A stretch of 64,000 nt of DNA from a virus, in IMG/VR virus record IMGVR_UViG_3300036792_000198, positions 1 to 64,000 of that record, one strand, 5' to 3'. Every line of letters starts with the position of its first letter. Position 1 is the stretch's first letter. The notes below the pieces were generated by a model. It worked only from the letters and a program-made list of their open reading frames with translations. It ran no database searches and had not been told where the DNA came from. The position numbers were made by a program, and so were the translations under genes. Positions 14,684 through 25,738 of the stretch are shown one piece after another.

Positions 14684-17143
14684 ATGGCGAAGACGAAGGC
14701 AGCCCCTGGCCGTCCGCTGGGGAAGTCACCCGGTGCTGCATCACCAGGGCGCGGCGGCCAGGGGCTGGGGCCTTCCACCGCGCCAGATCCTAGCAGCAGC
14801 CAGGGACGAGCCGGGGGACGACGGCGCGGGTACACGCCGCTGACCCCGATGCGCACGCAGACGGCGAGGCAGCTGAGCCGGCTCGCTGACCGGCTGAAGG
14901 AGTCCGGCCCTGACGTGCCCGCCCACCAGCACGTGCGGGACGCCGCCCGGATGGTCCGCTCGGGCCGGGAGGAGGCCGCGCAACGGCACCTGCGCGCCGC
15001 CCTGTTCTCCCTCACCCCGCAGTCCCTGATGCGGAACGGGCTGCACACCGACGACCAGCACCTGGCCGCCCGGTACGCGATGCACGGCGTCCACCGGCAC
15101 CTGCTGCTCGTCAAGGACATCGCGGACGTGGACGCGAAGAACCAGGAAGCGATCCGCCGCGACTCCTACGACACCGCGACGGCTCAGCCGCAGCGCCCGG
15201 ACCCGAACGCCGGCTACGGGCCGGGCGCGCTCGCGCAGAAGCCAACAGCACGGCAGCCGCCGGGGAACCAGGCGCTCAACGCCCCGGCGGGAACCAGCAG
15301 CGGAGGAAGTGACCCGAACGTGGCAAACCCGGCAGGCCCGCAGCCGCGCGGCAGCAAGCAGTTCACCAGCTGGGACAGCCTCAGCCGGGTCATCGAGCTG
15401 AACTGGGCGAAGTGGGACGCGGGCGAGCGCGGCTCCGCCTCCCGGCAGGCCCACGACACCGCCAGTGCCACGGCCAGGGCAACCGCGCTGCGGGACCGCG
15501 CCACCCAGGTTCACGCCCTGGCCGACGACGCCGAGAGCAAGTTCCCCGGCACCGGCAAGATCATCCACGCTGCCGCTGACGCGTTCAGCCAGGGTGACGC
15601 CGTCACCGCCGGCAACAAGCTGACAGAAGCGCAGACCGCGCTGCAGCAGCACCCGCGCATCAAGGCCGAGGCGAGCCAGCGGCGCCCCCTGTCCCCGGCC
15701 GACCGGGACTTCTCGGCGCTCAACAACCAGATCAAGACGCACATCGGGGCGGCCAGCCAGGCCGCAGCGGGACTAGCCGGCAGCTGGGACGAGCTGTCCG
15801 CCGTGATTGAGCTGGTCGGCCCAAAAGGATGGAGCCACGGCTGGGTGTACCACGGTGTGCCCGGCGGCATGGTGGTACCAGGTAAGCATGACCCGCGTTC
15901 GATCACGGCGGTCGGCGGCGGACGCAAGGACTGGATGAACGAGGCATCGCAGATGCCTGACGCGCGGGCCCGCCATGACTTCCCGGCGATCGCCGGGCGA
16001 ATGCGGCAGATCACCCCGGAACGGCTGCAGCAGGCCCGCAGCGACGCGACGCGGATCTCAAGCGGGATCGCCCCGCTGCACCCGGAGCTGGCCCAGATCT
16101 GGCCGGACGTGTACGGCAAGGCCCCCGGCGGCGGCAAGGCCCTGCCTGTCCCGAAGGCACCACGGAACCGGCCGGACCCGTACTCGGTGACCGGCCTGGA
16201 AAGCCCGCAGGTGTCCTACATCAAGGCAGCGGTCAGGCAGGGCCTGGGCATGGCGAACGAGTACGGGCTGTCCGCTGAGACCGGCCGCCTGGCGGTCACC
16301 CCGGCGCCCAGGGGGAAGCCCGGTGGGCCCGGCCTGTACGACGTCAAGGGCAACATGCACTCGCCGTACATGCAGAACATCGTGAAGGCGCTGATCCGGA
16401 AGGGGCACCCGCCCGGTGAGGCGTACAAGATCGCCTGGGGGTCGATGCGCCGCTGGGCGAAGGGCGGCGGCAACGTGCACCCGGAGGTCCGCGCGGCTGC
16501 CGCCGGCGGGCTCGCCCTGGAGAAGGTCGCCCAGGCGCGCGCCCACGCCCACGCGAACAGCTGGGACGAGCTGGGCGCGGTGATCGAGATGGCCGCGAAC
16601 CCGAACCAGCAGCGCGCCGTGAACGGCGAGTTCGGTTCCGGTGGGCAGGGTGCCCAGCAGCAGCAGGGACAGCAGAAGTCAGCGTCGTCAGCTACCGCCG
16701 GGAAGACCGCCAGCGCCAGCGCCAAGGCGAAGATCGCCCAGTCGCAGCAGTCGAAGCAGGCGCTGCTGTCGCAGGCCGCCGGCTACCAGAAGCAGGCATC
16801 CCAGCTGGAAGCCCAGCGGGCCGTCCTGCAGCAGGAACTGGCGTCGGCCAGCGGCAAGACCAGCAGCGGCCAGTCGGGTTCGACCACGTCCAGCGCCGGA
16901 TCGACCACGTCCAGCGGCGCCTCCACGACCAGCAGCAGCTCCTCGACAACGCCCAGCAGCTCCAGCACGACCAGCAGCAGCACGCCTGCCTCCTCCAGTG
17001 CCGCCGCAACCGCCGCCCCCGGCAGCGCGGCGGCCAGCGCCAGCGCCACCCAGCTGCAATCGCAGATCGACTCGCTGACCACGCAGATCGACGGGCTGCT
17101 GCAGAAGGCAGCCGCTGCGGCCCAGCAGGCAGCCGCGATGTGA
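14684..17143 (+). CDS. large head-module protein A (819 aa), unknown function, Ser/Thr-rich C-terminus
   Basis: Track ORF. Three copies of the SWD(E/S)L..VIE(L/M) motif lie at 15368..15433, 15782..15856 and 16559..16609. A Ser/Thr-rich low-complexity region runs from about 16860 to 17040. Confidence 0.75.
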   Translation: MAKTKAAPGRPLGKSPGAASPGRGGQGLGPSTAPDPSSSQGRAGGRRRGYTPLTPMRTQTARQLSRLADRLKESGPDVPAHQHVRDAARMVRSGREEAAQRHLRAALFSLTPQSLMRNGLHTDDQHLAARYAMHGVHRHLLLVKDIADVDAKNQEAIRRDSYDTATAQPQRPDPNAGYGPGALAQKPTARQPPGNQALNAPAGTSSGGSDPNVANPAGPQPRGSKQFTSWDSLSRVIELNWAKWDAGERGSASRQAHDTASATARATALRDRATQVHALADDAESKFPGTGKIIHAAADAFSQGDAVTAGNKLTEAQTALQQHPRIKAEASQRRPLSPADRDFSALNNQIKTHIGAASQAAAGLAGSWDELSAVIELVGPKGWSHGWVYHGVPGGMVVPGKHDPRSITAVGGGRKDWMNEASQMPDARARHDFPAIAGRMRQITPERLQQARSDATRISSGIAPLHPELAQIWPDVYGKAPGGGKALPVPKAPRNRPDPYSVTGLESPQVSYIKAAVRQGLGMANEYGLSAETGRLAVTPAPRGKPGGPGLYDVKGNMHSPYMQNIVKALIRKGHPPGEAYKIAWGSMRRWAKGGGNVHPEVRAAAAGGLALEKVAQARAHAHANSWDELGAVIEMAANPNQQRAVNGEFGSGGQGAQQQQGQQKSASSATAGKTASASAKAKIAQSQQSKQALLSQAAGYQKQASQLEAQRAVLQQELASASGKTSSGQSGSTTSSAGSTTSSGASTTSSSSSTTPSSSSTTSSSTPASSSAAATAAPGSAAASASATQLQSQIDSLTTQIDGLLQKAAAAAQQAAAM

Positions 17144-17144
17144 G

Positions 17145-24244: not shown

Positions 24245-24289
24245 TACGATGCCGCTAGGACAGTGGGCTGCTGACCGGGGAAGGAACCC
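24245..24289 (+). promoter_or_regulatory. conserved 45 nt element: TAYGAT -10-like hexamer plus leader ending in GGGGAAGGA, copy 1
   Basis: 39 of 45 positions are identical to 47808..47852, by hand alignment. It is immediately followed by a GTG start. Confidence 0.5.
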
Positions 24290-25738
24290 GTGCCGGCGAC
24301 CCTGCTGCCGTCCAGCGTCGAGCTGGTCGGTCCCAAGGGCTACGTGCACGGCTGGCATTATGTCGGCGGAGCCGGCCTTCCCTCGGTAGCGAAGCACAAC
24401 CTGGACCGGCCCAAGGCCGGGAACCTCAAGGCAGGCGACAGGGTCGCCGCCCTCTTCACCCACAAGGGCGCCGCCGGGGCGTTTGGCAGCCCGAACCGCA
24501 AGCTGTCCACCCACCAGGTCATGTCGGTCAGCCACAGCGGCAGCGGCAAGAACCGGCGCACCCACCTGGTCATGCGTGACACCAAGACCGGCGAGACGCA
24601 CAGGCAGTCGCTGCCGTCTCACGCCAAGGTCATCGCCCGCGTCTCCAAGGCGCCCGGCTTCGCCCCGATCAAGAACGGCAGGACGTCGAACCAGTCGTCG
24701 TTCCGGGCGTCCGGAGTAGGGCTCGCGGCACCCGCCACTTCAGATGCGAACGAGGGCCCCGCCATGACACTGGACTTTGCCACCCCCAAGCTCGGCAGCG
24801 GCGACCGCTTCAGGCGCCTCTCGGCCCGGCTCGCCGCACGCGGCGCCCGCAACCCCGACGCCCTTGCGGCCTACATCGGCCGCCGGAAGTACGGTGCCGG
24901 CGGGATGGGGCACCTGTCCCACGGCAAGCACCTTGCCAACAGTGACCTGGGCATCTACCTGGCTGAGACCGCCAAGGACAACCAGGGCATGACGCTGACC
25001 TGCCCTGAGTGCGGGCATACCGGGTCCGCCGGCAGCTTCGGCGCGAGCGGCGCCAGCACCGACTCCCAGCCGGGCGAGCTGCGCACCCCGGCGCCGGACG
25101 TGTCCGGGGTCCGGAACGGCGCCGTGGTGAACATCAGCGGCAAGGCCGCCTCCCATGCCCTGGCCAGCACCAGGCAGGCACTGGAGCTGGCCGCCGTAAC
25201 CGGCCGGCGGCCCATTCACGGCCCGATGGACGTCCTGGTCAAGCGCGGCACCGACGGCACCGCCGTCCTGCACCACCGGCACGGCGGCGCGCAGATCGCC
25301 AGCCTCCGCAAGACCCCCGAGGGCAAGTGGGTCGCCAGCGTCGCCGGCCGGGACATGCAGCCCCGCGACCACCAGCGCACCGCGCTGCTCGAAGCGGTCG
25401 GCGCGTGGAACGGCTCCATCGCCGGCGCCCGGCCGCAGGTCCCGCCGCTGCAGCCGGAGCCGAGGCAAACACCCCTGATGGAGCAGTTCGGCATCCCCGC
25501 GATGCGCAGCGCCGGGTTCGCGACCCCTGTGACCAGCGCCTCTGACGGCCCCCGGGCCACGATGTCGTCAGCGGACGGCGGGGACGGCGACAACACTGAC
25601 GACAACGGGCTCACCCCGCGCGGCCAGGCGATCTACAAGAAGCTCATAGCCAAGGGGTTCCCGCAGGCACGGGCCCTGGCGTTCGCGAAGAACGCGCAGA
25701 AGGCCAAGGCCGGCAAGTTCGGCACGTCGGGAAGCTGA
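24290..25738 (+). CDS. head-module protein E (482 aa), unknown function
   Basis: GTG start. The N-terminus SSVELVGPKGYVHGWHYVGG repeats the motif of protein A. Contains GSGDRFRRLSARLAARGARNPDALAAYIGRRKYG, a segment I recall from phage and plasmid proteins of unknown function. Confidence 0.7.
   Translation: MPATLLPSSVELVGPKGYVHGWHYVGGAGLPSVAKHNLDRPKAGNLKAGDRVAALFTHKGAAGAFGSPNRKLSTHQVMSVSHSGSGKNRRTHLVMRDTKTGETHRQSLPSHAKVIARVSKAPGFAPIKNGRTSNQSSFRASGVGLAAPATSDANEGPAMTLDFATPKLGSGDRFRRLSARLAARGARNPDALAAYIGRRKYGAGGMGHLSHGKHLANSDLGIYLAETAKDNQGMTLTCPECGHTGSAGSFGASGASTDSQPGELRTPAPDVSGVRNGAVVNISGKAASHALASTRQALELAAVTGRRPIHGPMDVLVKRGTDGTAVLHHRHGGAQIASLRKTPEGKWVASVAGRDMQPRDHQRTALLEAVGAWNGSIAGARPQVPPLQPEPRQTPLMEQFGIPAMRSAGFATPVTSASDGPRATMSSADGGDGDNTDDNGLTPRGQAIYKKLIAKGFPQARALAFAKNAQKAKAGKFGTSGS

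Follow-up and report, generated by a model that had tools for sequence, protein, structure and literature searches.

A variable block of polyvalent-type proteins between the MuF and prohead protease genes of an uncultivated actinobacterial phage lineage: candidate packaged cargo

The head gene module of an uncultivated actinobacterial phage lineage (~125 kb) was analyzed in the first 64,000 nucleotides of IMG/VR virus record IMGVR_UViG_3300036792_000198, a 64-kb stretch with 70% GC that is referred to here as the window. Five consecutive genes, encoding the proteins P1 to P5, fill the 11.8 kb that separate the MuF gene from the gene of a prohead protease-scaffold protein. It is rather probable that this block is a hypervariable cargo region, encoding polyvalent proteins that are packaged, cut by the prohead protease at recurrent linker peptides and delivered together with the phage DNA. 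The linker is confined to the block and its core, AVEL, occurs twice in the protease, a distribution that would fit packaged, protease-processed cargo. An original prediction, made from the nucleotide sequence alone, had regarded the five proteins as a set of capsid-packaged, injected effectors. As a reading of the block, cargo is plausible and has been strengthened, but it is unproven; packaging, cleavage, the scissile bond, injection and targets are what we infer, and the gene arrangement, the domain homologies, the fold of the protease, the specificity of the linker and the shuffling of modules among relatives were observed directly.

The genes of the head module follow each other on one strand in the order portal, MuF, P1 to P5, protease-scaffold, a gene for a protein of 192 amino acids (aa) and major capsid protein:

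9100-10500, plus strand: portal protein (Portal_Mu, E 9e-27)
13253..13933, plus strand: MuF, a short, stand-alone minor head protein of the SPP1 gp7 type (PF04233 Phage_Mu_F, E 1.6e-8)
14684..17143, plus strand: P1, 819 aa, putative frame protein with modules kept across related loci
17145..19361, plus strand: P2, 738 aa, predicted two-module polyvalent protein (PF23802, PF03496)
19351..22740, plus strand: P3, 1129 aa, predicted polyvalent protein (Arr-ms, domain X, HExxH motif)
22704..23837, plus strand: P4, 377 aa from its ATG (type B linker profile); the longest open reading frame (ORF) begins at 22383
23834..24004, plus strand: possible 56-aa ORF, without family match
24290..25738, plus strand: P5, 482 aa, putative frame protein directly upstream of the protease gene
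25742..26989, plus strand: predicted prohead serine protease with a scaffold-like C-terminal half, 415 aa (AlphaFold2/Foldseek)
27058..27636, plus strand: Gly/Ala/Val-rich protein of 192 aa, present in 59 related loci
27654..28565, plus strand: major capsid protein (phrog_1650, E 1e-67; PF25209), 97% identical in the related locus L002

The ORFs of P1 to P5 have exactly the coordinates, sizes and strand that had been claimed for them. Their GC content at third codon positions (0.82-0.92, all on the plus strand) is as expected of real genes at 70% GC and supports coding. The description of these genes as tightly packed or overlapping applies to four junctions: P1 and P2 are separated by 1 nt and P5 and the protease gene by 3 nt, whereas P2 overlaps P3 by 11 nt and P3 overlaps P4 by 37 nt. 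It does not apply to P4 and P5, which are spaced 452 nt apart. This interval harbours the possible 56-aa ORF, followed by a ~290-nt non-coding gap. The ORF had no match in family searches; in L002 a 41-aa ORF was called at the matching position. Counts of transcription signals within the block were no higher than in shuffled sequence. MuF, which forms the upstream edge of the variable block, is 226 aa long and lacks a C-terminal extension. It scores 35.7 bits against PF04233 (cut-off 29.6) and 33.8 bits against TIGR01641, which is under the cut-off of that model (39.65).

Linker peptides and the prohead protease

The linker is a recurrent peptide that coincides with homology breakpoints between relatives. 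Its first part reads φ-x-(E/D)-L-(A/G/V), as in QLEL|G, VIEL|V, SVEL|V and ALEL|A, with A-V-E-L-A/G as the clearest form. The second part is either of type A, W…(E/P)-R-x3-G-x-W/F (e.g. GWRYNPLERRNAHGEW), or of type B, GPKG(Y/W)xHGW or GxHxxGTxYxxRHGW. Profiles built from 15 (type A) and 7 (type B) instances were searched (E below 0.01) in 5,490 ORFs of at least 60 aa, taken from all six frames of 66 loci, and this yielded 71 type A and 32 type B matches, 103 altogether. All but one of these matches fall into the 14 kb ahead of the protease gene and are on the plus strand; the exception is located in a long protease variant, at the junction of its protease and scaffold parts. No profile match was found in the ~470 kb downstream of the protease gene across the loci. 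Loci that gave no seed contributed 81 of the 103 matches. Within the 64-kb window matches were found in all five proteins of the block and nowhere else, which bears out the short peptide tag that had been noticed in each of them.

The core motif A[VL]EL[AG] was counted 52 times in the block proteins (109.6 k aa), 43 times in protease orthologues (27.2 k aa) and 0 times in the proteins encoded downstream on the plus strand (103.7 k aa). Several (E/A)AVELA(G/M/T) sites, without the W/HGW half, occur in the minimal frame protein of the smallest related loci (described below), the block of which contains no HExxH protein. Linkers are found within ORFs as well as at their N-termini (27 of the 103 matches lie at the extreme ORF N-terminus, e.g. 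MTxTLSxQLxL(G/A)W… and …VELVGPKGYxHGW); each module therefore carries its own leader.

Two further observations concern linkers in other phages. A protein of the related locus L026 (57-1433) shows a tandem duplication inside its linker at aa ~40-75, EIELATVVELATVVELVGPKGYVHGW. Other actinobacterial polyvalent proteins (P0050, P0038-P0045 and others) have a separate repeated linker, FHL(P/E/Q)G(K/Q)H(D/N)QxxH, in front of their modules. This FHLxGxHDQxxH-type linker was seen at 27 sites in 7 proteins, three of them in the MuF-fused P0050.

The gene downstream of the block (25742-26989) had been described as a gpI-like protease/scaffold gene. Its product models as a prohead protease of the assemblin/T4 gp21 fold (aa ~21-167) with a scaffold-like tail. 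The AlphaFold2 model, built with 46 sequences, has a predicted local distance difference test score (pLDDT) above 90 from aa 21 to about aa 140, falling to ~70 by aa 167, and its C-terminal half is helical, acidic and scaffold-like. A Foldseek search with this model returned almost exclusively herpesvirus assemblin proteases and T4 gp21 (probability 0.98-1.0). Furthermore, H72, S116 and H137, the candidate catalytic residues, are invariant in the 46 sequences. These matches and residues support the identification as a prohead protease with a scaffold-like part, and architecture and fold agree with the term gpI-like. In terms of family the term did not hold, as the protein had no match of any kind, Mu gpI (Pfam Mu-like_Pro) included, at E up to 10 in Pfam and up to 5 in PHROG. 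The 843 homologues of the protease, many of which are encoded on contigs of 124-133 kb, likewise have no Pfam domain. Two AVEL sites are present in the protease itself. AVEL|G at aa 14-17 belongs to a disordered part of the model, and AVEL|A at aa 344-347 lies at a distance of 68 residues from the C-terminal end; relatives, among them L001 and L002, keep both sites. Long variants of the protease (520-540 aa; L061 6459-8036, P0084, P0098, P0111, P0166 and others) have an insert of ~100 aa at the junction of the protease and scaffold parts. The insert of L061 opens with VDLAGPKGYVHGW, a linker of type B, and looks like a cargo module that has entered the protease gene itself.

The gp21 protease of phage T4 cuts after Glu, following the rule L/I-x-E. 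Since gp21-type enzymes cut after Glu and the AVEL core is shared between linkers and protease, we infer that the prohead protease cuts at the linkers, and by analogy the scissile bond is probably located after the Glu residue. The protease gp245 of SPN3US cuts after A-X-E with a preference for Val at cleavage position P4, trims N-terminal propeptides off and cleaves its own chain 64 residues ahead of the C-terminus (PMC10052503). In the mechanism proposed here, cargo proteins would be co-assembled into the procapsid with the protease-scaffold protein. The assemblin-fold protease would then cut itself and the cargo at the linkers, probably after Glu, as do T4 gp21 and SPN3US gp245. Domain-sized enzymes freed in this way would be kept in the head, exit with the DNA and, in the new host, act on host or defence targets, e.g. 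by ADP-ribosylation. The likely processing enzyme of the polyvalent proteins would shift accordingly from the metallopeptidase (MPTase) of the cargo itself, proposed by Iyer et al. (2017, PMC5512222), to the prohead protease.

Several observations weigh against this mechanism. Cleavage position P3 of the linker site is often Gln, which fits neither T4 (L/I-x-E) nor phiKZ/SPN3US (A/S/G-x-E). In the model the second AVEL site of the protease forms a short beta strand instead of a disordered loop, and the E-values of the Foldseek matches are modest (about 1e-3), with no sequence family match. All relatives of the lineage are metagenomic contigs. P1, P5, the DUF7178 module of P2 and domain X of P3 are without assigned function. 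In addition, the second half of the linker (P-R-D-x-x-G-R-W/F) is found in polyvalent proteins of other lineages without the φ-E-L-A half, and the linker may therefore serve a role other than cleavage.

Such a role could be that of a docking or capsid-targeting peptide for the scaffold, the portal or the capsid interior, which is not cut, so that the cargo is ejected intact like N4 vRNAP. According to Iyer et al. (PMC5512222) the latter protein is packaged unprocessed. Polyvalent proteins of other lineages, portal and MuF fusions included, do widely contain the C-terminal linker half (W…RxxxGxW/F, HPRDxxGRF) with no AVEL-type site ahead of it. When domain X follows a portal or MuF domain in these lineages it is preceded by peptides of the type (H/N)P(R)Dxx G(R/K)(F/W), and a type A linker is present in 52 of 195 domain X proteins. 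Type B (GPKGYxHGW) moreover exceeds, in length and in conservation, what a simple cleavage site would need. Docking without cutting is nevertheless considered unlikely: the A[VL]EL[AG] core is common to two conserved positions in the protease and absent from all downstream proteins, and it occurs several times alone, without the W/HGW half, in the minimal frame protein. Docking and cutting are not mutually exclusive either, as the capsid-targeting sequence of T4 does both. Taken together, the distribution of the two halves would fit a two-part linker, consisting of a lineage-specific cut site and a more general element, perhaps for targeting.

Processing by the prohead protease can be extended to a broader, more tentative proposal, which we regard as possible but doubtful. 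The linker would then be a portable 'load-and-cut' tag, the locus plug-and-play and the protease a general processor of polyvalent proteins, with linkers matched to each lineage. A linker of ~25-35 residues would recruit any domain into the procapsid, from which the assemblin-fold protease would excise it, and effector domains could be swapped freely, fused or split at no assembly cost. The φ-E-L-A…W/HGW linker here and the FHLxGxHDQxxH linker elsewhere would each be matched to the protease of the lineage. No linker or tag of polyvalent proteins, nor DUF7178, was found described in the literature searched, and a conserved linker on every module that is shared with an assemblin-fold protease appears to be new.

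Domains of P2, P3 and P4

P2 begins with the leader/linker MTETLSAQLEL|GWRYNPLERRNAHGEW, followed by DUF7178 (aa ~12-380; PF23802, E 3e-29). An internal linker, QLLHL|ASYEGRHIAGTPYTFRHGW (aa 371-405), precedes an ADP-ribosyltransferase (ART) of the R-S-E type. Residues 472-658 (nt ~18558-19118) match ADPrib_exo_Tox (PF03496) with 31.4 bits against a cut-off of 23.4, and P2 also matches phrog_3895 (ART exoenzyme toxin; E 3e-4). The motif residues R561 (VFRG), S586-T-S588 and E642 (GEYILPRG) occur in this order, as read from the sequence and not from a structural alignment, and we take their order and spacing to fit the R-S-E family. With a score above the Pfam threshold and the motif residues in order, the R-S-E ART of the original prediction was recovered. 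The Q/E-x-E 'ARTT' motif is not present in P2, which has Ile at its first position (I-G-E), nor in the L002 homologue, which has Leu (L-A-E); without Q/E two residues before the catalytic Glu the target specificity cannot therefore be inferred. The DUF7178 module recurs within proteins of 1663 aa and 1551 aa of relatives. Neither P2 nor the DUF7178 alignment gave a significant PDB match by sequence or profile. A tblastn search of P2 against 50,697 phage records resulted only in a weak DUF7178 match, to gene 22 of Microbacterium phage Cece, which is annotated as 'glycosylase'. The R-S-E type of ART was not found in polyvalent proteins by the 2017 survey (Iyer et al., PMC5512222), and its presence inside such a protein appears to be new.

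P3 is identical to a protein encoded on a 125,950-bp JGI metagenome contig. It consists, in this order, of a linker (aa 45-68), an Arr-like ART (aa 68-176), a second linker (aa 212-238), domain X (aa ~250-430), a helical stretch that contains HExxH at aa 510 and again at aa 597, the linker variant QLEL|AW…RDEKGRF (aa 687-727), a small Tudor/SH3-like beta domain (aa 737-782, from an AlphaFold2 model) and a gluzincin-like metallopeptidase module (aa ~810-1129). No significant PDB match by sequence or profile was found for P3. The AlphaFold2 model of the whole protein is confident in domain X, the small beta domain and the terminal helices only; modelling of the Arr and zincin parts failed because the alignment is thin or misaligned there.

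The Arr-ms profile matches aa 68-176 (nt 19552-19878) over 97 of its 99 positions, with 21.0 bits for the whole protein and 24.7 bits for the isolated module against a cut-off of 25. The sole homologue of this module among 5.8 billion proteins is P0198, a PF12120 protein of 112 aa (38% identity, E 5e-7); a resemblance to the Arr-annotated part of the polyvalent protein P0009 was seen as well. The Arr part gave no PDB sequence match at E up to 1, and its pLDDT is below 50. Judged from profile and homologue, the segment is accepted as a divergent Arr-like (H-Y-type) ART, borderline but real, as had been predicted. An Arr-like ART as cargo appears to be new.

Domain X (window 20100-20640) comprises ~200 aa and was modelled with a pLDDT above 90. 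It has no significant PDB neighbour by Foldseek and no match in the family libraries; a BFVD match consists of one unnamed viral protein of 125 aa. The family counts 454 clusters at 50% identity, nearly always within polyvalent proteins of up to ~2,970 aa, and is characterized by the conserved motifs ARGNSRPVS, WGGAT, LGxFHDD, IDIDPV and GGAYxFxxGNGYWPPHV. It is mainly this domain that homologues of P3 share, and 76 polyvalent proteins carry it. Its partners are Portal_Mu, Phage_portal, MuF, DUF7178, Zeta toxin, PemK, ParB nuclease, GNAT, NUDIX, 2H phosphoesterase and papain-like amidase.

The zincin signature claimed for P3 stands as a motif. HEMIH (aa 900-904; nt 22048-22062) is followed by EEGF (aa 931-934), and H900, E901, H904 and E931/E932 do not vary among 14 homologues, where the spacing is 27-28 residues. 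Assignment to a family or a fold failed: searches of the module in Pfam, PHROG, NCBIfam and PDB profiles gave no match, the model is of low confidence there, and a weak SprT-like match (E 0.025) falls on the other HExxH motif at aa 597. This invariant HExxH…EE module and the two further HExxH motifs of P3, together with the three HExxH motifs in the large polyvalent protein of L001, suggest that the cargo could be processed by its own zincin-like metallopeptidase domains, before or after injection and with the prohead protease uninvolved, as Iyer et al. proposed. Linker sites are present, however, in P1, in P5, in the protease itself and in the minimal loci, which have no HExxH protein; the site therefore tracks the protease gene and not the metallopeptidase. 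Since the sites are kept in these loci they are not targets of the cargo's own metallopeptidase, which rules out self-processing as the main explanation and leaves a protease-independent route improbable.

P4 is composed of an N-module (aa 1-86), the linker QLEL|ASIHGHHIPGTQYTFRHGWIP (aa 83-111; type B profile match, E 2.6e-19), an Ala/Lys-rich helical region and a hydrophobic hairpin (aa ~335-370; Kyte-Doolittle maximum 1.58 at aa 348). Its C-terminal part corresponds to the C-terminus of an 838-aa protein of L002 that begins with domain X. Whole proteins and linker-cut modules were searched in Pfam, PHROGs, NCBIfam and PADLOC, and no match was obtained for P4, P1 or P5, nor for the protease or the 192-aa protein. 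The hairpin region (aa ~335-377; window 23700-23830) is conserved and Gly/Ala-rich, ends with IHDYVRG and is also found inside the 417-aa protein of L001. It may be a membrane-active segment of an ejected protein.

The domains found in P2 and P3 recall the MuF-type polymorphic toxins known from temperate phages (PMC5576092). Virion-borne or released at lysis, such enzymes would harm competing bacteria and not aid infection. The block adjoins MuF, the R-S-E ART belongs to an exotoxin family, and Zeta toxin and PemK domains occur in homologous proteins. MuF of the window, however, is a stand-alone protein of 226 aa with no C-terminal extension, and the ART and Arr genes each overlap the gene behind them, so that no small immunity-type ORF comes directly after either. 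We consequently give the toxin explanation a very low probability.

Module shuffling among relatives and the conserved frame

Related loci were collected by scans with the protease gene, which resulted in 58 IMG/VR contigs and 5 contigs of Actinomycetota metagenome-assembled genomes (Mycobacterium sp., Streptosporangiaceae, Actinomycetes and two unclassified Actinomycetota). P1 and P5 were characterized through these fetched loci; searches of databases for homologues were performed with P3, the protease and the Arr module. A megablast search of the block against the 50,697 phage records revealed no close cultured relative, and capsid relatives among these records are at most 38% identical.

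The distance from MuF to the protease gene ranges from 3.2 to 12.6 kb in 18 loci, the window being near the upper end. L001 (portal 85% identical) has the same gene order with proteins of 659, 106, 1663, 549, 417 and 461 aa, and L002 (capsid protein 97% identical) has proteins of 941, 406, 84, 1551, 838, 41 and 330 aa in the same order. DUF7178 and domain X are combined in one protein in L001. In L002 the ART, DUF7178 and the zincin are in one protein and domain X is fused to the C-terminal module of P4. The synteny in L001, L002 and the 18 loci shows that the five genes, which had been taken as a set, are not a fixed unit; relatives fuse and split the same modules differently. The numbers of loci in which the modules were found differ widely:

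Protease, N-terminal part: 65 loci
Protease, C-terminal part: 61 loci
192-aa protein: 59 loci
P5 C-terminal core: 56 loci
P1 core modules M1a and M1c: 19 and 26 loci, respectively
Zincin: 22 loci
DUF7178: 18 loci
Domain X: 12 loci
R-S-E ART: 5 loci
Arr-like ART: 0 loci

A Pfam census of 49 large proteins encoded upstream of the protease gene in relatives gave DUF7178 (14), Zeta_toxin (3), PI3/PI4-kinase-like (3), 2H (2), TROVE and others, a few of the listed families being host genes on genome contigs. The PI3/PI4-kinase-like cargo (GNGDRHxxN…IDHG) of L002 (3881-5101) and L064 (2897-8362) has the same linker ahead of each kinase-like part.

The N-terminal end of P1 is basic and disordered. It leads into a conserved helical N-module (aa 56-239), a linker-ended module (aa 240-377) and a conserved 'PGGPGLY…WAKGGG' core (aa 378-636), followed by a coiled coil and a Ser/Thr-rich tail. 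Its three linker sites are VIEL|NW at 236, VIEL|VGPKGWSHGW at 374 and VIEM|AA at 633, and the type B profile matches at aa 369-394. The start at 14684 was kept because of the strong Shine-Dalgarno sequence (GGGGAGG) upstream of this ATG, and Met56, the start called in relatives, was set aside. The Ser/Thr-rich tract after the coiled coil (aa ~716-770, 16830-17000; LQQELASASGKTSSGQSGSTTSS…) is conserved and present in L001 and L002 too; its start is kept among relatives despite the low complexity of the sequence. P5 consists of the leader/linker SVEL|VGPKGYVHGW (aa 9-24, within a type B profile match at aa 3-29), a variable middle part with a CxxC motif, the site ALEL|AA (aa 297-302) and a conserved C-terminal core (aa 301-482), which always adjoins the protease gene in the loci that have it.

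In the smallest loci a single protein of ~480 aa combines a P1-like core, a basic coiled coil and a P5-like core. P1 and P5 therefore are the conserved frame of the region. By this sequence comparison the two proteins are a lineage-conserved frame and not obviously effectors, and P2 to P4 are variable inserts or cargo, so that the claim of five effectors was too wide. A multi-gene cargo region of variable length between two conserved frame proteins appears to be new. The minimal frame proteins of L053 (8116-9567) and L067 (7989-9779) contain a long, strongly basic, Ala/Lys-rich coiled coil, histone H1-like, between the P1-like and P5-like cores and with AVELA sites on both flanks. This basic stretch could be that of a DNA-binding internal head protein.

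In phage T4 most core proteins are degraded to small peptides. Similarly, the block might encode nothing that is delivered: its products would be scaffold or core proteins of the head interior, lost by degradation and expulsion during maturation, or else late enzymes that do not enter the virion. P1 and P5, conserved, non-enzymatic and coiled-coil-rich, would suit such a role. Rapidly shuffled enzymes (two ART types, kinase-like, Zeta, 2H, peptidase), however, make no sense as disposable scaffold, and homologous modules are fused to portal proteins, which remain in the virion. This explanation is regarded as highly improbable, and packaged cargo remains the preferred reading of P2 to P4.

The 192-aa protein (27058-27636), conserved between the protease and capsid genes, occupies the position of the scaffolding protein of Gordonia phage BetterKatz. 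In appearance it does not resemble a helical scaffold. Upstream of the block an insert of ~2.7 kb separates the portal from MuF (10500-13250). It harbours three small genes and about 700 nt without clear coding signal. The products of 10854-11531 and 11538-11918 have hydrophobic segments, either N-terminal or internal, and no family match was obtained for 11992-12522. The insert resembles a moron-type insertion of the head module; in L001 MuF lies within ~600 nt of the portal. Further upstream of the portal a C-5 cytosine DNA methylase gene is located on the minus strand (6552-7961; PF00145, E 4e-32).

Significance and comparison with known systems

To our knowledge, almost no polyvalent protein has been studied experimentally. 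For one lineage, the locus described here offers a concrete, testable answer to the question how such proteins get loaded and cut. If the linker is a cleavage and targeting signal, this would explain the interchangeable boundaries of domains and genes in such regions, would make cargo and processing sites predictable from sequence in metagenomic phages and could serve to load foreign proteins into capsids. The two types of ADP-ribosyltransferase would be placed among the first proteins that are likely to reach a newly infected actinobacterial cell.

Phage T4 packages Alt, an ART, and its internal proteins by means of an N-terminal leader of ~10 residues, which is cut after Glu by gp21. The proteins of the block show a similar beginning, M-T-x-T-L-S-x-Q-L-E|L…, and the model of the protease matches gp21. 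Unlike in T4, there is no sequence homology with the leader, the tag is repeated internally in a polyprotein-like manner, and a long conserved part extends beyond the putative cut. The processing of many head-internal proteins at A-X-E by gp175 of phiKZ and gp245 of SPN3US is likewise comparable with the A-V-E|L sites found here, including the second site of the protease 68 residues from its C-terminus. Those phages are jumbo myoviruses with an inner body and mostly non-enzymatic, paralogous cargo, whereas the present lineage is ~125 kb in size with enzymatic, modular cargo.

The Dar system of phage P1 (DarA, DarB, DdrA, DdrB, Hdf, Ulx) is also a multi-gene, head-packaged set with some processed members, and protects incoming DNA. 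DdrB and DarB have been counted among the polyvalent proteins (PMC5512222). In contrast to the block, Dar genes are not located between MuF and protease genes and no shared linker is known for them; no homologous domains were detected here. MuF toxins resemble the block in their toxin-type domains, including ARTs, in their association with MuF and in their location in the head module (Jamet et al. 2017, PMC5576092). In these systems MuF carries the toxin as a C-terminal fusion, and a small immunity ORF usually comes next (PMC5576092). The MuF of the window, in contrast, is a short protein on its own, and the ART and Arr genes run into the genes behind them, with no immunity-type ORF next to them.

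The closest description is that of the phage-type polyvalent proteins, so that the view of the block as not belonging to a described system has to be abandoned: the class is known, and its domain networks and gene context match those of the block (PMC5512222). The number of polyvalent proteins catalogued by 2017 exceeded 9,900. Packaging in the capsid is predicted for them, and zincin-like MPTase domains and ARTs are their commonest domains (Iyer et al. 2017, PMC5512222). Like P2 and P3, they combine unrelated enzymatic domains and are encoded among late head genes of portal-terminase phages, near or fused to MuF or portal (PMC5512222). P2 (DUF7178 and ADPrib_exo_Tox) and P3 (Arr-like, domain X and HExxH) each have at least two unrelated domains per polypeptide, and the context from portal/MuF to protease/capsid is found in L001, L002 and the 18 MuF-bearing loci as well. 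By domain content and context P2 to P4 are phage-type polyvalent proteins, with packaging and injection a published prediction for the class; experimental precedents are T4 Alt with its capsid-targeting sequence, the ejection proteins of phiKZ and SPN3US and the Dar system of P1. Text searches of the 2017 paper of Iyer et al. (PMC5512222) revealed no linker of the present kind. The block differs from the polyvalent proteins described so far (PMC5512222) in that its load is distributed over several adjacent genes with interchangeable boundaries, and in that one linker is common to every module and to the prohead protease.

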